From IMG/VR virus record IMGVR_UViG_3300000101_000005: a stretch of 64,000 nt of DNA, one strand, 5' to 3'. Positions 23,368-46,056 of this stretch are shown piece after piece; the stretch's first letter is position 1; each line of letters opens with the position of its first letter. The notes beneath the pieces are model-generated. The model saw only the letters and a program-made list of their open reading frames with translations. It ran no database searches and was not told the origin of the DNA. Made by a program: the position numbers and the translations under genes. This DNA is from a virus. Taxonomy: Duplodnaviria; Caudoviricetes.

Positions 23368-26300
23368 TTAATCAGTCCTAATACCCTTATGCTCAAAGCT
23401 TCGATAAAATAATGCCTGAGCTAGATAACTTCCCCCAATGCCCGCTTTCGGACCTTGTAAATCAAACATCACTGGGATGTTAACTGCTTGTCCTGCTGTA
23501 TTACCAATCTCATCAGGACCTACCTTAACTGTACCTGCGATAAAGCTCGCTGTTAACAAGTCTGCTCCACCAACGTTAAGTCTATTTGTTAAGTACGCTT
23601 TAATTGCTCTCTGTGTAGGAATAATGTTGTTTGAATCTGCAATAAACAACGGATCTGTTGAGAACTCTCTAATAACTGTACCAGTACCACCAACTCTAAT
23701 TCCACCTAGTGCAAGTTCTGTAAGACCTGCTAAGTCAAAGAAGTCAGCACTAATAGTAACAATACCTGTAGACTGTTCAACAGCAAACAATTCACCAACC
23801 CTAAAGTTACCTGATTGGTCTGTACTTGAGTAGAATACTCTACCACCATTTATTTCTTGTACCTCATTTTCTGGATAAGAAATATAATTTTGTGTATACA
23901 ATCCTGGATAGTTAGTCTGTGTAAAGTTACCTGTACCAATATCTAGGAAGTCGTGGTTTGAAATTCTACATTGTGAATATCTAGTGTTAATTGTTACGCT
24001 ATTACCATGATTTGTTGTTGGATCGTCCTCAATTTTAAGTTCAGGACTTACTCTAAATCTTAGAGTAAAGGTTCCACCAGTATCAACACTTTCTTGCTCA
24101 ATAACAACAACAGTGTAAAGTTCTGGGTTACCAGTAAGTCTTAACTGCGCACCTGGGCCAATAACAACTGGCATTCCAGAAACTGTAATAAACTTACCTA
24201 CAGGAGTAATATCTGCAAAACCATCACCTGTTACAGTAACAGTAGTTGTACTTGTTTTATATGCAGTACCTCTGTTAGTCCAACTTGGTTGTGCTAATAC
24301 ACCGTCTGCAAATCTTGTCATATCAAGTTCAAGTTCACCTGTGTTGTTAGGATCAATAACTGTGTACCCAACTGGAGTATTAACAATATCATAACCTGAA
24401 CCTGGATCCCAAAGTTTTACAACTCCGATCGATCCAGCAGTTACATCTGCTCTACCTTTAATTGTAGCACCTGTGTAAACAACTTTGTGAGTAAATTTAA
24501 CATCACGGTCTAATACTACCCATCTACCTTTTCTATTATCTAAACCATCTGTAGCATCTGCATCTGGATTACCAAATACACATCTGTTCCAGTTTCCAAT
24601 TTGTCCAATGTCTCTCTCGGTCCAATGTATTCCGTCTGGTGATGTGTAAATGTATTGTACCGGTCCTGTTGTTGCATCTCCTGAAATAGTTCTACCTGCT
24701 GTATCGTAAAGTGCCATAAACACACCTTGACCATATTTTAGATCGTTCCATTGTAATATTGTTGAACCATCTATTAATGGCATAGTTGCCGGATACCAAG
24801 TTTCTCCATCGAATGAATAACCAATATCGCCAGTGTCTGACATAGCAACAAATCTATTATTACCAAATGCAACACGGTTCCAATCTTTTTGCGTACTGTC
24901 TGCAACAACGTCCATGATATAAGTTGCCCAAGTAATAGTTGTACCGTTCCATGTTCCTATTGCTGCTAAGTTATTACTATTTGCAATTGCAACAAATTTT
25001 CCTGCACCATAAGTTACACTCACCCATTCGTTAATAGTTGAGTCGCCTGCTGCTGGAAAGTTAGCTGCTGACCAAGTTGCGCCGCCGTTGGTTGATATCG
25101 CTGCATTGTTTCCTGCACTTGAAACTGCAACAAATACGTTTGCTTCTACTTCATCATATATTGGATTACCGTATGCAACATCTGTCCAATTAGTATTTGC
25201 TGGTAAACTAAATGCAGTCCATACGCTACCATTTGAACTATATGCACCTACTGCTGCAGAATCTTTAATTGCAACAAACTTTCCGTTACCTGCTGCAACT
25301 GATTTCCATACACCTGCGGATGGTAAGTTTGCCGTTGCCCATGTTGTTCCGTTAAGAGAGTAGTTAACAGTTGTACCTGTGTTTGCAACTGCTACAAATC
25401 TACCACTTTCTGCAAATCCTGTATATTCAAATGTAACAATGCTGTTTGTACTATCGTCAGTTACACTATGTACTGAGATTGTAATATTGTTATCACTGCC
25501 TGCACCTAAGCTACTACCTAAAATTACAAGACTGTCGCCTATTGCGTATCCAGCACCACCTTGTCTTAATGTAACTGTGTAGTCTTTGCCAAGTTTTACA
25601 ATATCAAATGTTGGGTTAGAAGCCGGTACTCCGATTGTTGATCCTGTTCCTGTACCTGTTGCACTAACAGATGTATATACAGCTGATGTTTCACCGTAAG
25701 CTACATCACCCCATGTTGTACCAGAATCAAGTGTTGATACTGCATGTGAAAAAGGAGGTGCATCAAACACAACTCTTGGTTCGAACCTATAAGATGTACC
25801 TGTTAATAATTGTTCTAAAATTGGTTTACCTGGAACTACATGATCCCAACCTGGTGTAGCAGTAGACTCCTTGTAAACTGTTACAACTTTTGAAGTACTG
25901 TTATAAGCATGTACATAACCATACTGTCCTGTACCAGGTCCTGATGTTAAAATAATTCTTAAACCTAACAAGTTTGCTTCTTCATTTTCATCGTTAGTAG
26001 CAATAGTAATAGTAGTTGTATCACCAGTTTGAGCGTTGTTACCAATAAGTGTAAATCCGCCTCCACCTGCTGCTGCTGACGCTTGACCTGTAACAATCCT
26101 TGCTTCAAACATAGCATCATCTCTAGTTTCTTCTTGAAGTACTGCTGCGTTTGCACCTGAACCAACAAATGTATAATCTGCTGATGTATAATTTTGTCCA
26201 CAGTTTTTAAATTCTAATGCAAGAATCTCATCATTTACTTCTCCAGCAAATGCTGACACAACCTGTGCTTCTTCTTGTCTGTTATTAATTGTAGCAGTAA

Positions 26301-28956
26301 TTGGTGTTTCAGTTGGGTCTGTACCGTCTGCTAACGCACCAATGTAACCATATGAACAGTTACCATTAGTAGCACGTATAATACCACCATTTTCTGCTAG
26401 GTATCCTACCTGTGCATAATATGTAAACACTGATACAAGTTCTGCTCTACCATTGTTAAGAACGTGAGCACCAATACCATCACTAATTACCTGTGTAAAA
26501 TCGTTGGACACGATTGATTTGTTACCGCCTGCGTGTAATGATCCATCAATTTTTTGTCCTGTACAATTGCTACCAAATGTAGATACACCTTGTATATATG
26601 GAGAACGTGTTGTAATCCAAACTTTAGTATCTGCTGTACCCCAACCTGGATCAAGCGAAACATAATTAGGACCAGTTGGTCTTTGATATTGTTCAAAAAC
26701 GTTTGGTGGATTAAGTGTACCTGTTAAACCGTCAAGTGTACATTGTCTAACTCCACAGGCATCTCTAACATAAAACATATCTGTTGACGAACTTCCAACT
26801 ACCATGCTGTTGTAGAACTTACCTTCTTTTAAAATTCTATAGTTTCCTTCATACTGTAAATCGTATGCAAGTGCATTACAAATTCTATGCATATCGTCAT
26901 TATAAATTGCACTATCGTATGCATAATCACTAAATGTATTATCAAGATATGATGTTGCTTCTTTCATTAAGAAGTCTTTATTTGCAATAATCATTCTTGC
27001 TGCATTTAATCTATTTGTTTGAGTTGTAATTGCATTTGTACCAGTAACAACAGGATCAGTTCCTGTACTTTGTACATGGAAATTAATATACTGATTATAA
27101 TCTGCTAGTCCGTTGTCAACTAAGTTTGCTGCAACTGAATCTGAAGTAACTTGCACGTAGTTAATAATTTCTAGTCCATCGCCTGTTGGAGGTCCTGGAT
27201 TAAATGTTCCTGTCTTAATAGCATCTGTAATTACTGTAACATCAGCAGTATTTCCTGATTGTTTTGTAAACGATGTTCCTTCTAAAATGTGTCTAATAAC
27301 ACCTTGTAAGTGTGTTGATACAGCAATTCTGTATACAGCATCACTTGCCATAGAAGCAATTGCACCTCTTGGTTTAATTTTAGATGATCTAATTTCATCA
27401 CCAAGCACAACTGTTTTAGCAGGCAAACTGATTGGAAGTATTTCTTCGTACAAGCCTGTTGTTAATTGTATTGTGTTATGTGCGTCTACACCGTCGTCAG
27501 CTATTTCTGCTGCGTATCTAACTGTCTTAACTGGTTTGAAAGGATCAATACCTGCGTTGGCGTTTGCTCTATCATCTACACCAATAATTGGATCAACGTA
27601 AATGTACCTTGCACTTTTACCCCAGTTATCATATTCTAAAGTATCAGTTGGACCAACTTGTAAAAGTTTCTCAGCAGTTCCTAGTGGAACGTTAGTAGCA
27701 CCTAATGTAGATCCGTCACCAGCAATAGTTCTGCTTAATCCAAATGTTAATAAATCACCCGGGTTAACAAGTCCAACATTATCTGCACCTTGAAGTAAAA
27801 GATCCCAATAATTAAATCCACTACCGTTATCTCCTGGGAAGTTTTCATCACTTGCTGTATGTTCTATGTTTGCTTTATATGCACTACCTCTGTAAGTAAT
27901 TACATCGCCTACTGCGTATACTGTTGCAGTAGTCCAAGAATTTTTCCACGCTTGTCCGTTAACAATAAGTTCCCAGTTACCTGCATCAAGATAGTCTAAT
28001 GAACTTCCGTCATCAGCACTGTTTAATGTTGCAACATAAATTGATCCGCCTCTTTCAACAACATCACCTGTTTTATATTGTGTTGCCTTTGCCCATGTAC
28101 CTGCAAGATTAATACCTTTTGAAATAACTGCCCAATCAACCTCACCCGGTTGGTAAATTGAATCACCTGGGTTACGTGCATAATTGTTTGTTTGTGACTG
28201 GTAAACATATCCGCCGTGTTGTACAACATCGCCAATTGCATAGTATGTTGAGCCTGACCACTGACCTTGAATTTTACGTCCTGGTACTTCTAAAACAAAG
28301 TTTGAAGAAGTAATATTAGTTGTTGATGTATGTCCTGTTAAAACTCTTAAAAGCGATCCACCATACTTAACAAGGTCCTGCGCTCTGTATCTAGTAGCGT
28401 CAGTATATGAACCTTTAAACGTTTTACCGTAGTAATAAGTTGTCCATTTAAATTGATCGTCTTCTAAACCTAATGCTGTAGTTGCTGCTGAAGTATGTGC
28501 AGTAGAACATTTGTAAACAATACCACCGTAGTTAACAACATCGCCTACACCGTATGTCGTTGCAACTGCCCAATCGCTACCCCAGTCTGCTCCTGGAACA
28601 TAAACTGCCCAATTAGCAATGTCTGTATTAAAATCTGCTGATGATGTGTGTCCTGTTGCAACAAGCCAAAGAGTACCACCGTCATCTACAATGTCTCCGT
28701 TATAGTAAGTCGTTGCGGCTGCCCAAGCACCTCTAAATGCTCTACCATCGGACATCTTCTTCCATGCCGGTTGTGCAATAGTGTCGCCAACTGGTATGTA
28801 ATCCACATCTGCTTTAAAGTTTGCTGATGTGTGTCCTCTAAGCGCAATATATACACTGCCTCCGTACTGTACAACATCATCAATGATGTATGCAGTTGCA
28901 GTTGTCCATGGACCTTTCCATGTATATCTAATTCGACTTATCTTAAACTCTGCCAT
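23368..28956 (-). CDS. Giant virion structural/receptor-binding protein (1862 aa), paralogue of 15479-23299
   Basis: MAEFK.RIR..WKG.W start, the same CBM5/12-like repeats, GGNKSIVSNDFTQVISDG, Asp-box repeats and HDFLDIGTGNF...PTQRAIKAY. Confidence 0.8.
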   Translation of the reverse strand: MAEFKISRIRYTWKGPWTTATAYIIDDVVQYGGSVYIALRGHTSANFKADVDYIPVGDTIAQPAWKKMSDGRAFRGAWAAATTYYNGDIVDDGGTLWLVATGHTSSADFNTDIANWAVYVPGADWGSDWAVATTYGVGDVVNYGGIVYKCSTAHTSAATTALGLEDDQFKWTTYYYGKTFKGSYTDATRYRAQDLVKYGGSLLRVLTGHTSTTNITSSNFVLEVPGRKIQGQWSGSTYYAIGDVVQHGGYVYQSQTNNYARNPGDSIYQPGEVDWAVISKGINLAGTWAKATQYKTGDVVERGGSIYVATLNSADDGSSLDYLDAGNWELIVNGQAWKNSWTTATVYAVGDVITYRGSAYKANIEHTASDENFPGDNGSGFNYWDLLLQGADNVGLVNPGDLLTFGLSRTIAGDGSTLGATNVPLGTAEKLLQVGPTDTLEYDNWGKSARYIYVDPIIGVDDRANANAGIDPFKPVKTVRYAAEIADDGVDAHNTIQLTTGLYEEILPISLPAKTVVLGDEIRSSKIKPRGAIASMASDAVYRIAVSTHLQGVIRHILEGTSFTKQSGNTADVTVITDAIKTGTFNPGPPTGDGLEIINYVQVTSDSVAANLVDNGLADYNQYINFHVQSTGTDPVVTGTNAITTQTNRLNAARMIIANKDFLMKEATSYLDNTFSDYAYDSAIYNDDMHRICNALAYDLQYEGNYRILKEGKFYNSMVVGSSSTDMFYVRDACGVRQCTLDGLTGTLNPPNVFEQYQRPTGPNYVSLDPGWGTADTKVWITTRSPYIQGVSTFGSNCTGQKIDGSLHAGGNKSIVSNDFTQVISDGIGAHVLNNGRAELVSVFTYYAQVGYLAENGGIIRATNGNCSYGYIGALADGTDPTETPITATINNRQEEAQVVSAFAGEVNDEILALEFKNCGQNYTSADYTFVGSGANAAVLQEETRDDAMFEARIVTGQASAAAGGGGFTLIGNNAQTGDTTTITIATNDENEEANLLGLRIILTSGPGTGQYGYVHAYNSTSKVVTVYKESTATPGWDHVVPGKPILEQLLTGTSYRFEPRVVFDAPPFSHAVSTLDSGTTWGDVAYGETSAVYTSVSATGTGTGSTIGVPASNPTFDIVKLGKDYTVTLRQGGAGYAIGDSLVILGSSLGAGSDNNITISVHSVTDDSTNSIVTFEYTGFAESGRFVAVANTGTTVNYSLNGTTWATANLPSAGVWKSVAAGNGKFVAIKDSAAVGAYSSNGSVWTAFSLPANTNWTDVAYGNPIYDEVEANVFVAVSSAGNNAAISTNGGATWSAANFPAAGDSTINEWVSVTYGAGKFVAIANSNNLAAIGTWNGTTITWATYIMDVVADSTQKDWNRVAFGNNRFVAMSDTGDIGYSFDGETWYPATMPLIDGSTILQWNDLKYGQGVFMALYDTAGRTISGDATTGPVQYIYTSPDGIHWTERDIGQIGNWNRCVFGNPDADATDGLDNRKGRWVVLDRDVKFTHKVVYTGATIKGRADVTAGSIGVVKLWDPGSGYDIVNTPVGYTVIDPNNTGELELDMTRFADGVLAQPSWTNRGTAYKTSTTTVTVTGDGFADITPVGKFITVSGMPVVIGPGAQLRLTGNPELYTVVVIEQESVDTGGTFTLRFRVSPELKIEDDPTTNHGNSVTINTRYSQCRISNHDFLDIGTGNFTQTNYPGLYTQNYISYPENEVQEINGGRVFYSSTDQSGNFRVGELFAVEQSTGIVTISADFFDLAGLTELALGGIRVGGTGTVIREFSTDPLFIADSNNIIPTQRAIKAYLTNRLNVGGADLLTASFIAGTVKVGPDEIGNTAGQAVNIPVMFDLQGPKAGIGGSYLAQALFYRSFEHKGIRTD

Positions 28957-42104: not shown

Positions 42105-44849
42105 CTATGCTCTCATACTAGACATTTCTTCAAGTGCGTCTAATATTCGATGTTGTACTTTTAAAGTTTCAGATTGTATCTGTATACTTGCTTGTGTATT
42201 TAGTGCAGCAGCATCTGCTGCTTCTTTTTCTGACTTACCAGGAACGTAATCTGGATTTTTCATTTTGTTGTTACGAAGGTTCTCTTCAGCGATAACGTCC
42301 AAAGCGTTAGTTTCATCACCTGCTTTAATAGTGCCTCTTACGCCAACATCTCTAGCACTACTGTACTGTCCAACAGGTACACTTGGTCTAGTATCTTTAA
42401 TTACTGTACCATCTGGTGATACCAAAAAGCTATCTTCGTTTTTGGCAAAATCTTTTAAGACGTTTGTTGCATTACTTAAACTTTGGTTAAGTTCTAATTC
42501 TGCTTCTTTTTGTTTATTAAGTTCAGCATCAACAATATGAGCGTCTTTTGTTTGTTGCAATTCACCTTTTACAGCTCTGGCTAAATTTTCTTTGGCTAGT
42601 CTAAGTTTCTCGTCAAGAGCTGCGTCACGCTCACCGCGTTCTATTAATTTTGCTTGTTTAATTGCTAATGCTTCTGCTTCAGATTCGTAACGGTTTATAG
42701 CGAATCTATTAGCAAGTGATTCTTTCTCTGCTGCATTTTTTTCTTTCATGATTTCGATGTTTTTACGCATCTGTTCTTGTTCAGCTTCTTCTTCATCACT
42801 TGTACCAAGTGTTAATGTATCACCCCATGCCTTTAATTGCAGACCTAGCTCATAAAATGATATTCTCATATCTGCTATTGCTACTTTGAAACTGTCAAAT
42901 ACATCACCTAGTGTTCTAAAGCTATTAAAGAAATTAGTAAAATACTGCCCAATCGCATCAATCTTTTCTCCTAGCCAACCAAATGCCGTTGCGATTGGAG
43001 TTATTACAGGTTCGAACGTATCACCAAACCAATTTAAACCGTCTGTTACCCAATTCAATGCATTTTTAAAACTTCCCATAAAGAAGTCACTAACACCTTC
43101 AATTGCAGGATATAAATTTTGATCTATCATCTTACCTACATCGTCAGCCATTCTGCCAACAAACTCTATAGGTGGAGCAAAGGTATCTTCTAAAAGATCT
43201 TTGGTTGAATTAAATGCACCCATTAATTTTATTCCAACTACATCTGCTAACGGTTGGAATATTCCAGTTACATAGCTTATACCGTCTGCTAATAATCTAA
43301 GCGGTGCTGTTGCAATGTAAACAGCATCTCCAAATAAGTTTAAAGCACCTCCTATAAGTTTAAATGCTGGTGTAAGAATTGCACTAACAATTTCAACCAC
43401 AGGCATAATAACTGCACTCAGCACTCTAAATACAGGGAATAAAATGTTTTCTGTAAATGCTGCAATCATTTCAAATGCACCCATCATAGTATCCATGATT
43501 CCTGTTGATGCTAACAGTCTAGTAAATGTTTGACTTATTTCATTAATACGTCTGCGCATTGCTTCCATAGCACTCATTTGCCCGTCGGTGGCTTTTGCTT
43601 GTTCTTTTGATGATTTAAGTAATCCGTCTATCGGAATGTTACTTGCTTCAACAAGGTTATTAAAATGGTCAGCCATTTCAGCATCAAATCTAGCAACGTC
43701 TCTAAATCTGCCTCTACTCTGTTTGCCTTCTATAGCCAGCGTATTGTTTAGTTCATTTCTTTGCCTCAGACTGATTGTGCCACCAGCTTCTGTAATTTTT
43801 GCAAACTCCATCATCATAGCTGCTGATTGTGGCATCGTCGATGCAAACAATTGAGATTCTTTTGTTGTTGCACTTCCTGTAGTAATAATATCCTTAGCAA
43901 TATCTTGTAAGCCTCCCTTAAGGCCTGTTACTGTATTCCTAAACGAATCAGCAGCTTCTTGTGACATGCCTGAAATTTTTGCTTGGAACTGCCCGTCTGC
44001 TAATAGTGCTGCTTGTTTATCTTCAATTGCACTTCTTTCTTGACCTGTTGCTTTTGCAAGTAAGTCAATCTCTTTCATGTAATCAGTTGATGCTTTTGTT
44101 AACTGTTTTGTTGACATGCCTTGCAGTTTACCAGTTCTACCAAGGATAGTAGTATAACGTGCCATGCTTTCATTTACTTGTAAAGTTGTGAAACCCATGT
44201 TGTTAAGTTCACGCATGAATCCACTCTTACGTAAATCTTTAGACAAAGAATCAAAACGTTTACGTCCTGTTTCAACATCTCCGCCTAGTAGCCTAAATGC
44301 TTCACCGCTCTTTCTAACAAATGAACTGTATTCATTTATTGTCATACCTGCTCTACTTGCAGCCATGGACATTTCCATAACACTGCCGCCAAACGTTGCT
44401 CCGCTGTTTGAAGCACTCTGTGTTGCGTTAACTAGTTTTTCTGTTGCTGCTGCTGCCGCTTGGAATGTGCCGCCTAATAATGGAATTTTTGCTGCTGCTG
44501 CGGTAACATTGTTGTCTAGATTTGAATAACCAGCCATTGCACCTGAAATGGCATTACTCATATCAATCATTTTGCCTGCAACGCCTACAACAGCGCCACC
44601 AAATTTAGCAACTGCACCAAATGCTTTTCCTAGTGATGCTCCTAGTTTACTTGAGTTAGTTGCTGCTCCGCCTTGTGCTTTGGTTAGTTTACTGGCTGCT
44701 GCTGCACCAGCGGCTCCACCGCCTCCGGCACCACCGCCTCCGCTAGTTTTTCCGCCAAGAGCCTTAAGAATTTGGCGAAGAGTCTCTTCCGAAGCAGCAT
44801 TTTTAGCTTCTACTTCGCCAACTCCGGGTATGTCGATCATTACTGCCAT
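42105..44849 (-). CDS. Tape-measure-like tail protein
   Basis: 914 aa, helical and Ala/Gly-rich, with aromatic-periodic repeats in the second half; adjacent to the tail-chaperone-like pair. Confidence 0.7.
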   Translation of the reverse strand: MAVMIDIPGVGEVEAKNAASEETLRQILKALGGKTSGGGGAGGGGAAGAAAASKLTKAQGGAATNSSKLGASLGKAFGAVAKFGGAVVGVAGKMIDMSNAISGAMAGYSNLDNNVTAAAAKIPLLGGTFQAAAAATEKLVNATQSASNSGATFGGSVMEMSMAASRAGMTINEYSSFVRKSGEAFRLLGGDVETGRKRFDSLSKDLRKSGFMRELNNMGFTTLQVNESMARYTTILGRTGKLQGMSTKQLTKASTDYMKEIDLLAKATGQERSAIEDKQAALLADGQFQAKISGMSQEAADSFRNTVTGLKGGLQDIAKDIITTGSATTKESQLFASTMPQSAAMMMEFAKITEAGGTISLRQRNELNNTLAIEGKQSRGRFRDVARFDAEMADHFNNLVEASNIPIDGLLKSSKEQAKATDGQMSAMEAMRRRINEISQTFTRLLASTGIMDTMMGAFEMIAAFTENILFPVFRVLSAVIMPVVEIVSAILTPAFKLIGGALNLFGDAVYIATAPLRLLADGISYVTGIFQPLADVVGIKLMGAFNSTKDLLEDTFAPPIEFVGRMADDVGKMIDQNLYPAIEGVSDFFMGSFKNALNWVTDGLNWFGDTFEPVITPIATAFGWLGEKIDAIGQYFTNFFNSFRTLGDVFDSFKVAIADMRISFYELGLQLKAWGDTLTLGTSDEEEAEQEQMRKNIEIMKEKNAAEKESLANRFAINRYESEAEALAIKQAKLIERGERDAALDEKLRLAKENLARAVKGELQQTKDAHIVDAELNKQKEAELELNQSLSNATNVLKDFAKNEDSFLVSPDGTVIKDTRPSVPVGQYSSARDVGVRGTIKAGDETNALDVIAEENLRNNKMKNPDYVPGKSEKEAADAAALNTQASIQIQSETLKVQHRILDALEEMSSMRA

Positions 44850-44932: not shown

Positions 44933-45844
44933 ATGGCAGAACAAAATGCGTCAAATGATGCAAAAAAAGATGAGCAAGTTAATATTGCTCCAACAGTAAC
45001 AGTTACACAGGCACCTGCAAATCCACTAAGTGGGTATTACAGACAGCCTAAAATTTATATTAGATTACCATCAGGCGGAAAGTATTATCCTGAAGGAGCA
45101 TTAGATCCAAGTGAAAACGGAGACTATGCTGTATATGCAATGACTGCAAAAGACGAACTAATGTTAAAAACACCAGATGCTTTACTATCAGGAGAAAGCA
45201 CAGTAGAAGTTATTAAGAGTTGCGTACCTGCCATTAAGCAACCTTGGATGATGCCTACTATTGATATTGATTCAATCTTGGTTGGTATTAGAATTGCTAC
45301 TTACGGTGATGAAATGGATGTATGGGCTAACTGTCCAGAATGTAAAGAAGAAAACAAATATACAATACCGTTAACAAACTACATTAACACAGGTAAGTCA
45401 GAGTGGAAAGATAAAATCACAACTGGTGATTTGACTTTTGATCTAGAACCTTATAACTATAAGCAAATGACTGGTGCTAACATTAAAACACTTGAAGAAC
45501 AAAGAGTGTTTAGTATTGTTAATGACGAAGAAATGTCAGACCAAGAAAAGATGGAAAAGTTTCAAAAGAGTTTTGTTAGATTAACAAATATGACCATTGA
45601 TACTATTGCTGATGTAGTTACTGCTATTGAAACACCTCAAGGTAAAACAGAGAATAAGGATCAAATAAGAGACTTTCTTAACAACTGTGATAAAGAAGTC
45701 TTCCAAGGACTTACCGATCATTTAGCAGATATTAAAGGTAGACAAGGTATTCCAGATCAACATGTTAAGTGTGAATCCTGCGCCCATGAATGGGACTTAC
45801 CTATAACAATGGATCAAGCAAATTTTTTCGCCGACAGATCCTGA
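44933..45844 (+). CDS. Baseplate hub/tail assembly chaperone, T4 gp26-like
   Basis: YRQPKIYIRLPSGG, YAMTAKDELMLKTPDALL, ILVGIRIATYG, CPEC and CESC Cys pairs, ends ANFF. Confidence 0.75.
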   Translation: MAEQNASNDAKKDEQVNIAPTVTVTQAPANPLSGYYRQPKIYIRLPSGGKYYPEGALDPSENGDYAVYAMTAKDELMLKTPDALLSGESTVEVIKSCVPAIKQPWMMPTIDIDSILVGIRIATYGDEMDVWANCPECKEENKYTIPLTNYINTGKSEWKDKITTGDLTFDLEPYNYKQMTGANIKTLEEQRVFSIVNDEEMSDQEKMEKFQKSFVRLTNMTIDTIADVVTAIETPQGKTENKDQIRDFLNNCDKEVFQGLTDHLADIKGRQGIPDQHVKCESCAHEWDLPITMDQANFFADRS

Positions 45845-46056
45845 CGCTGCCCGTATCAGAGATCGTTGAACTATCCAATAAGTTAGACAAGGATGCAAGG
45901 GCACTTAAAAAAGACATTCTACAAATCTGCTGGTATATGAGAGGAATGGATTATACTGCTGCTATGCATCTATCCACTGAAGAGCGTAAAATTATTGGTG
46001 ACATTATCAAGAGCAATTTAGAAACCACTAAAACTAGTGGCCTGCCTTTCTTTTAA
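45790..46056 (+). CDS. gp51-like assembly factor in the -1 frame, probably made as a frameshift fusion with the upstream ORF
   Basis: ICWYMRGMDYTAAMHLSTEERKII motif; overlaps the 3' end of the gp26-like gene at A-AAT-TTT-TTC and has no clear SD. Confidence 0.65.
   Translation: MGLTYNNGSSKFFRRQILTLPVSEIVELSNKLDKDARALKKDILQICWYMRGMDYTAAMHLSTEERKIIGDIIKSNLETTKTSGLPFF

Follow-up and report, generated by a model that had tools for sequence, protein, structure and literature searches.

Are a gp26-like gene and the small open reading frame (ORF) that overlaps its 3' end in the -1 frame two genes, or one gene read in two ways? The question is raised by positions 44933-46056 of a 64,000-nucleotide (nt) stretch of DNA from an uncultured marine T4-like phage (Duplodnaviria; Caudoviricetes; IMG/VR record IMGVR_UViG_3300000101_000005), hereafter called the window. 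The first of the two frames encodes a protein resembling gp26 of phage T4, and the second a peptide resembling the C-terminus of T4 gp51. Both T4 proteins are listed as hub assembly chaperones (Leiman et al. 2010, Table 2; PMC3004832). That review describes gp51 as essential, of unknown function and not in the particle, and the presence of gp26 in the particle as disputed.

An earlier note on this DNA, made from its letters alone, had proposed that a programmed -1 ribosomal frameshift joins the gp26-like ORF to the gp51-like one. The proposal fared well in comparisons with relatives, which revealed an invariant slip site and frame, selection in the -1 frame, no conserved start codon and a covarying RNA stem. 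On this comparative evidence, ribosomal -1 frameshifting very probably makes the long form, and we are confident in reading 44933-46056 as one gene, recoded, that belongs to the gp26/gp51 family (PF12322) of baseplate-hub assembly proteins. The recoding signal in this hub-chaperone gene is real, deeply conserved and apparently unreported.

A slippery heptamer and an open -1 frame are conserved together

The 0-frame product of 303 amino acids (aa) matched the Pfam family PF12322 (T4_baseplate) with an E value of 3.8e-16 and a score of 59.9 bits (cut-off 24.5), its residues 65-299 aligning to positions 16-218 of the 219 in the model. It also matched phrog_150, a 'baseplate hub' family (E 1e-21). 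There are two CxxC pairs in the protein, and its C-terminal part carries an xFF motif; the four Cys residues and the FF are invariant across the family (alignment A2). Its C-terminus is ...PITMDQANFFADRS, ending DQANFFADRS*, and the last codons of the frame are GCA AAT TTT TTC GCC GAC AGA TCC TGA. From 45790, the -1 frame has no stop before a TAA at 46054-46056. A -1 slip on the heptamer T_TTT_TTC would append 75 residues to the first 299, yielding a product of 374 aa with the junction ANFF|RRQILTLP. Predicted masses are ~34 kDa for the short product and ~42 kDa for the long one. The peptides predicted at the slip are ...DLPITMDQANFFR for the trans-frame product versus ...DLPITMDQANFFADR for the 0-frame product. 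The gp26-like ORF, two overlapping heptamers, a hairpin 7 nt further on, the -1 frame and the predicted 374-aa fusion were all found where the earlier note had placed them (Table 1).

Table 1. Coordinates of the proposed recoded gene, its putative signals and a neighboring ORF in the window
Feature	Coordinates	Strand	Detail
0-frame ORF, 303 aa, gp26-like baseplate hub assembly protein (short product)	44933..45844	+	Translation and PF12322 match
Slippery heptamer T_TTT_TTC, proposed -1 shift site	45823..45829	+	0 frame (AAT TTT TTC), five codons before the stop
Overlapping heptamer A_AAT_TTT	45820..45826	+	0 frame; not conserved, probably irrelevant
-1 frame extension, predicted C-terminal domain of the long product	45829..46056	+	75 codons and TAA; resembles the gp51 C-terminus; RRQILTLPVSEIV...ICWYMRG...LSTEERKIIGDII...GLPFF
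Stem-loop, likely frameshift stimulator	45837..45864	+	GATCCTGA...TCAGaGATC; 7 nt after the heptamer
0-frame stop TGA	45842..45844	+	Inside the 5' arm of the stem-loop
914-aa ORF, candidate tape measure (gp29-like), divergent	42105..44849	-	Flanked by the portal and gp26-like genes

Searching IMG/VR with the 303-aa protein returned 355 relatives, of which the best 80 (50-87% protein identity) were examined. T_TTT_TTC was present in frame, 4-8 codons before the stop, in the window and in every relative with a complete 3' end (78/78). In all 78, an open -1 frame of 69-77 codons followed the heptamer. The extension was exactly 75 aa long in the window and in all 74 complete relatives of its clade (55 distinct versions), and 73-77 aa long in Atu_ph07, Phosso and PA5oct. 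Conservation among the 55 distinct peptides begins with the residue right after the slip, and they share the pattern R-[RS]-[KQ]-I-L-x-L ... CWYMRG ... S-x-EER ... NLETTKK..LPFF. Upstream, the base before TTT was always T, though the codon it completes encodes Asn, Asp, Thr, Ser or His, each of which has a C-ending alternative.

The second heptamer of the earlier note did not share this conservation. A_AAT_TTT was rejected as a shift site, being lost in relatives that have GAT, ACT, AGT or CAT before TTT TTC. As it is not conserved, only T_TTT_TTC counts.

The heptamer (as T_TTT_TTC or T_TTT_TTT) and the -1 frame were also kept in 14 cultured phages, including jumbo phages, cyanophages and a pelagiphage. 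Eight of these (Atu_ph07, Phosso, PA5oct, CBB, RAS14, Turkey5, XacN1 and Munch) encode proteins ~30% identical to the window protein, and the remainder are P-SSM2, S-PM2, HTVC008M, KVP40, Aeh1 and phiM12. The form T_TTT_TTT occurs in RAS14 and XacN1. The earlier note had suggested that homologues be checked for a slippery site at the C-terminal xFF and a -1 frame; the 78 relatives and 14 isolates keep both.

Codon preference was also considered. The window phage favors TTT and T-ending codons. Although TTC is the favored Phe codon in the rest of the gene in Phosso, RAS14 and XacN1 (TTT fraction 0.22-0.30), all three retain T_TTT_TTY. Over ten genes, the chance product for the slippery codon choice was ~2e-5. 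When the XacN1 protein was used as a query, no relatives were found in IMG/VR.

Within the window clade, both products end near Phe-Phe: the short form in ...NFFADRS* (45823-45829 in the window) and the long form in ...GLPFF* (46042-46053). This hints at a shared C-terminal docking motif. The Phe-Phe end is not present in the cyanophage and KVP40 tails.

The extension and the C-terminus of T4 gp51

T4 gp26 (208 aa; residues 1-206) and gp51 (249 aa; residues 1-201) each match the whole PF12322 model. The ~48 additional C-terminal residues of gp51 correspond to phrog_150 positions 236-280 and to phrog_634; in gp51 homologues (P0005-P0096) this tail carries the newer Pfam label PF28602. By profile comparison, the tails of the cyanophages, KVP40, Aeh1 and phiM12 (...YYKINFALMQHHKYSLTELENMMPWEREIY...) are plainly homologous to the gp51 C-terminus, with an hhalign probability of 96% and an E value of 1.5e-9. 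The window-type extension aligned with this cyanophage/KVP40-type extension at E 2.5e-4, in the same register at the ...S/P-x-x-ER... motif. The profile of the entire window-type fusion was colinear with the whole of gp51 (40-364 versus 4-249; local hhalign, E 2e-5). At the junction, the motif FF-R-x-x-(I/L)L-x-x-P-x-E-I matches VF-K-LL-V-N-P-D-E-I of gp51, and it is there that gp26 ends (EFFELL*).

Genes of this family were found in three arrangements. Atu_ph07, PA5oct, CBB, XacN1, P-SSM2, S-PM2, HTVC008M, KVP40, Aeh1 and phiM12 have one PF12322 gene with T_TTT_TTY and a -1 tail. T4, RB49, RB43 and Acinetobacter phage 133 have two PF12322 genes, a short gp26 and a long in-frame gp51, and no heptamer. 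RM378 has one PF12322 gene, with the tail in the +1 frame. Gene 26 of T4 ends GAG TTC TTT GAG TTA CTA TAA, which is not slippery, and is followed directly by gene 25. The common PF12322 match, the split between one-gene and two-gene phages and the alignment of the extension with the gp51 C-terminus support a further guess of the earlier note, that the gp26/gp51 family is one short/long pair.

Individual genomes added detail to these arrangements. In Aeromonas phage Aeh1 (NC_005260 ~118850-119010, minus strand), an unannotated gp51-like -1 tail follows the T_TTT_TTC that ends the gp26 gene. In Rhodothermus phage RM378 (NC_004735 ~25929-26700), the PF12322 gene ends ...NESFFWNKL* over a run of seven T (CC TTT TTT TGG). 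The two genes of RB43 (NC_007023 64622-65903) lie in tandem on one strand, gp51 then gp26; they are divergent in T4, RB49 and phage 133.

In a maximum-likelihood tree of the bodies (midpoint root), T-even gp26 and gp51 formed one clade (96/93), sister to KVP40 and Aeh1 and nested among the slip genes. The simplest history is an ancestral slip gene, then a duplication in the T4/RB49/RB43/133 lineage. On this view a single slip gene is widespread among T4-like phages and was probably their original arrangement, and the duplication fixed copy 26 as the short form and copy 51 as the long, in-frame form. The gp26 of RB43 grouped with the gp51 branch (96/90), on a long branch.

Selection on the -1 frame and the case for a separate gene

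In the -1 frame, the pairwise ratio of nonsynonymous to synonymous differences (pN/pS) was 0.30 over extension codons 6-38 and 0.24 over codons 39-75, compared with 1.17-1.62 in the two remaining frames. Low pN/pS in this frame alone indicates that the stretch directly after the 0-frame stop is protein-coding.

A protein-coding tail might be a gene in its own right. The downstream ORF would then be translated alone, from its own start or by termination-reinitiation, to give a free 'mini-gp51' of ~60-75 aa. Public annotation is on the side of this explanation: GenBank records have the tail as a separate small gene in P-SSM2 (gp51, 57 aa), KVP40 (55 aa), Phosso, Turkey5, CBB, XacN1 and others. 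Some start codons are also suitably placed, overlapping or abutting the 0-frame stop as ATGA (Atu_ph07, Phosso, Turkey5), TAATG (KVP40) or TGATG (phiM12), or lying two bases on (the cyanophages P-SSM2 and S-PM2). Within the examined stretches, such overlaps are at 3829-3836 of L001 (Atu_ph07), 3823-3830 of L002 (Phosso) and ~2040 of L087 (Turkey5), and also in L117 (KVP40) and L127 (phiM12). The window itself has an ATG in the -1 frame, at 45790.

This ATG bears out the earlier note's remark that the downstream ORF has no good Shine-Dalgarno sequence: no Shine-Dalgarno-like motif precedes it, and it is present in only 4/55 distinct relatives. Across the 55 distinct loci, candidate starts were spread from -54 to +102 nt, most of them without a Shine-Dalgarno motif, and no position was conserved. 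Four of the 55 had no ATG, GTG or TTG before extension codon 39, the Met of WYMRG in the middle of the conserved peptide, and PA5oct had none within the first 120 nt of its extension. With no conserved start codon, the conserved N-terminal half of the extension can be translated only by ribosomes that come from the upstream ORF. Purifying selection acts on residues upstream of any start. Separate translation would also leave unexplained why T_TTT_TTY, the T before it and the -1 frame are invariant in all lineages, and the homologous tail of T4-type phages invariably continues a PF12322 body in frame. We consider two independently translated genes to be unlikely.

A covarying stem-loop downstream of the heptamer

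The stem-loop of the window has a folding energy of -13.3 kcal/mol (z -2.49 versus shuffles), and its 7-nt spacer lies within the 5-9 nt expected for a stimulatory structure. Its minimum-free-energy fold adds four outer pairs from 45832 and spans 45832-45868. In alignment A1 (ungapped, 49 distinct relatives), the 8-base-pair stem (columns 17-24/45-52) was 87% paired and contained 42 double-sided changes, versus 12.8 in shuffles; none of 500 shuffles scored as high. The signal collapsed in controls in which one arm was slid. The covarying positions are wobble bases, with Lys AAA/AAG pairing with Ile ATT/ATC. Individual folds in the window clade had z scores of -2.4 to -3.6. Downstream of the site, P-SSM2, S-PM2 and XacN1 have strong hairpins as well (z -3.3 to -5.5).

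The stem bears on a second alternative, in which the frame is changed during transcription. RNA polymerase would stutter on the T run and add one U, and some transcripts would then carry the fusion as one continuous frame. All lineages have a run of 6-7 T at the site, and the +1 tail of RM378 after its T7 run is unexplained by a simple -1 ribosomal slip. However, a covarying stem-loop at a spacing typical of ribosomal -1 stimulators argues against stuttering, and a run of six T is short for a bacterial RNA polymerase to slip on efficiently. Two studies contributed three RNA-library runs whose contigs cover the site, and these contain no inserted or deleted base at the T run, although contigs hide minority forms and this absence is weak evidence on transcriptional slippage. 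Polymerase stuttering therefore strikes us as very unlikely. Least credible of all is the absence of any recoding, with the heptamer and open -1 frame as by-products of the FF motif and AT-rich sequence and the extension never made: an invariant FF makes TTT/TTC expected, particularly in a phage favoring TTT, but does not account for purifying selection that acts on all 75 codons in the -1 frame alone, a constant 75-aa length in the window clade, homology of the extension to a real domain (the gp51 C-terminus), or a heptamer kept in TTC-preferring phages and lost in phages with a separate gp51.

Probable frameshifting in a single gene

Ribosomal -1 frameshifting in a single gene is the explanation we prefer. 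The evidence for it comes from comparing sequences; we infer that shifting occurs, at some rate, and that both forms act as chaperones of the hub and possibly of the tape measure. Several points weigh against it. To our knowledge, U_UUU_UUC is not one of the strongest bacterial slip sites. The hairpin is weak or absent in Rak2-like phages, KVP40, Aeh1, phiM12 and HTVC008M. The match between the window-type extension and the gp51 C-terminus is weak (hhalign E 3.8e-4, probability 36%, 26 columns), and hmmscan of the 75-88-aa extension against PHROGs and a Pfam copy without PF28602 returned no match. In RM378, the 76-aa tail-like ORF is in the +1, not the -1, frame, which could stem from a -2/+1 shift, from slippage of the polymerase or from an error in sequencing the homopolymer. 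Finally, in lineages with an ATG at the stop, coupled re-initiation could also yield a free small tail protein. As for the hairpins, the sequences compared indicate that the heptamer is universal and the stimulator lineage-specific.

In the proposed mechanism, most ribosomes would remain in the 0 frame, stop at 45844 and release the 303-aa short form, the presumed equivalent of T4 gp26. A minority would pause at the stem-loop while phenylalanine transfer RNA (tRNA-Phe) occupies the P and A sites over UUU UUC, and would slip one base back (TTT TTT C). These ribosomes would read 75 codons in the -1 frame to give the 374-aa long form, the presumed equivalent of T4 gp51. The long form would combine the short-form body with a helical C-terminal domain, and the slip would set the short:long ratio, as in lambda G/GT. 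The roles of the two products are suggested by T4 genetics, by analogy.

Gene neighborhood

The gp26-like ORF is the only plus-strand gene locally, flanked by minus-strand ORFs of 914 and 724 aa. The 914-aa ORF adjoins a T4-type portal gene. The earlier note had placed the frameshift pair beside the tape-measure gene. The 914-aa ORF does adjoin the pair, and its identification as the tape measure protein is a lead only: its language-model look-alikes are mostly tape measure clusters, and it has a weak BLASTP match to T4 gp29 (E 0.007). Searches of Pfam and PHROG families with this ORF gave no match.

The order portal, long ORF, gp26-like gene was also found in PA5oct and Phosso. A long divergent ORF also precedes the gp26-like gene in CBB and Munch, in stretches that did not reach the portal. 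In KVP40 and P-SSM2, long hypothetical ORFs directly follow the slip gene. A PHROG scan of the long neighbors in KVP40, P-SSM2, PA5oct and Phosso identified none as a tape measure protein; PSSM2_017 alone matched a tape measure PHROG, weakly (E 0.002).

Existing annotation and what a recoded gene would change

The tail has been recorded in several ways. The record of the 55-aa ORF of KVP40 notes its likeness to a 40-aa stretch of the T4 gp51 C-terminus. Other records besides those with a small gene give the tail as a hypothetical ORF or omit it (PA5oct, Aeh1); the 73-codon -1 extension of Pseudomonas phage PA5oct (3840-4061 of stretch L003) is unannotated in RefSeq. None of the public records examined contains a feature joined across frames.

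In the literature, Sullivan et al. (2010; PMC3037559) reported cyanophage gp51 to be ~20% of normal length and gp51 to be 'missing only in Aeh1'. In the portions of that paper considered here, the short gp51 is a free-standing gene and frameshifting goes unmentioned. The examined part of a 2016 recoding review (PMC5009743) nowhere uses 'T4-like', 'cyanophage' or 'baseplate'. A full-text literature search, with subscription journals outside its coverage, found no published report of the slip.

The 'mini-gp51' of the cyanophages and KVP40 is the same element as the extension in the window: a short ORF, similar to the gp51 C-terminus, that comes directly after gene 26 in the -1 frame, past T_TTT_TTC. 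If the single-gene reading is correct, the short gp51 of cyanophages and vibriophages and its absence from Aeh1 would both be explained, with the gene 26 body supplying the missing ~200 residues. Hundreds of jumbo-phage and cyanophage records would change, from gp26 plus a tiny hypothetical ORF to one slippage gene. The reading would also offer a model in which assembly of the hub and tape measure needs a fixed short-to-long ratio. If one recoded gene was ancestral, the T4-like phages, a conspicuous group without a conserved tail-gene frameshift, would join those that have one.

Comparison with known systems

The closest counterpart is the T4 pair. The gp26 and gp51 proteins belong to the same family and have the same body as the window protein, and the short form stops just past the xFF, as gp26 does (...EFFELL). 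The gp51 tail is helical with a ...P-x-ER... motif, as in the long form, and the window gene sits in a baseplate-hub neighborhood. The systems differ in that T4 has two divergent genes and no slip site, whereas the window would make both forms from one gene by recoding. Tail lengths also differ (75 aa in the window type versus ~48 in gp51), and the two tails are weakly similar.

Tail genes of other phages offer a second comparison. P2 E/E+E' is a further case beside lambda G/GT. The lambda gpG/gpGT pair exemplifies a -1 frameshift conserved in chaperone genes of long-tailed phages (Levin et al. 1993; Xu, Hendrix and Duda 2004; both as cited in Atkins et al. 2016, PMC5009743). The logic is the same: an X_XXY_YYZ -1 slip near the 3' end of a chaperone gene yields an abundant short form and a rarer extended form. 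According to the two reviews, G and GT are not in the finished particle (PMC5009743), and neither is T4 gp51 (PMC3004832). Lambda G/GT adjoins the tape measure gene; the window gene adjoins a candidate one, but this is divergent and the gene is not directly upstream of it. The window body is also 2-3 times larger than lambda-type chaperones and has a zinc-ribbon-like Cys4 motif.

Structural searches did not connect the two systems. The window protein had no match among the tail-assembly-chaperone Pfam families. AlphaFold models of the short form (m299fa11cb1a3; pLDDT, the predicted local distance difference test score, 77) and of a T4-like gp51 (ma4af8f548eed; pLDDT 92) gave no fold match when compared with the PDB by Foldseek and VIA-align. 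The only hits were generic helix-loop-helix matches to the tail, none past E 0.1 or Z 5.3. The tail in the gp51 model consists of four helices. By phmmer, neither gp26 nor gp51 had a solved structure among PDB sequences. What the gene shares with lambda G/GT is its logic and design; homology was not detected, although a shared fold may have escaped these searches.

We tentatively suggest that gp26/gp51 may be the tail assembly chaperone of the T4 superfamily, in which the body would hold the tape measure protein gp29 while the hub forms, the frameshifted tail would recruit the next component (hub or tube), and the slip would set their stoichiometry as in G/GT; we would give this broader proposal somewhat less than even chances. 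If it is true, the 'conserved frameshift of tail assembly genes' would reach essentially all long-tailed phages, here via a non-homologous protein, with T4 as the exception in which two genes fix the ratio.

A cellular system shares the same design. Escherichia coli dnaX makes tau and gamma, two products with a common N-terminal body, from one gene via a -1 slip at a heptamer with a stem-loop. Unlike in the window gene, frameshifting in dnaX gives the shorter of the two products, and the proteins of the two systems are unrelated. In other bacteria the dnaX pair is made otherwise, a parallel to the two-gene solution of T4.

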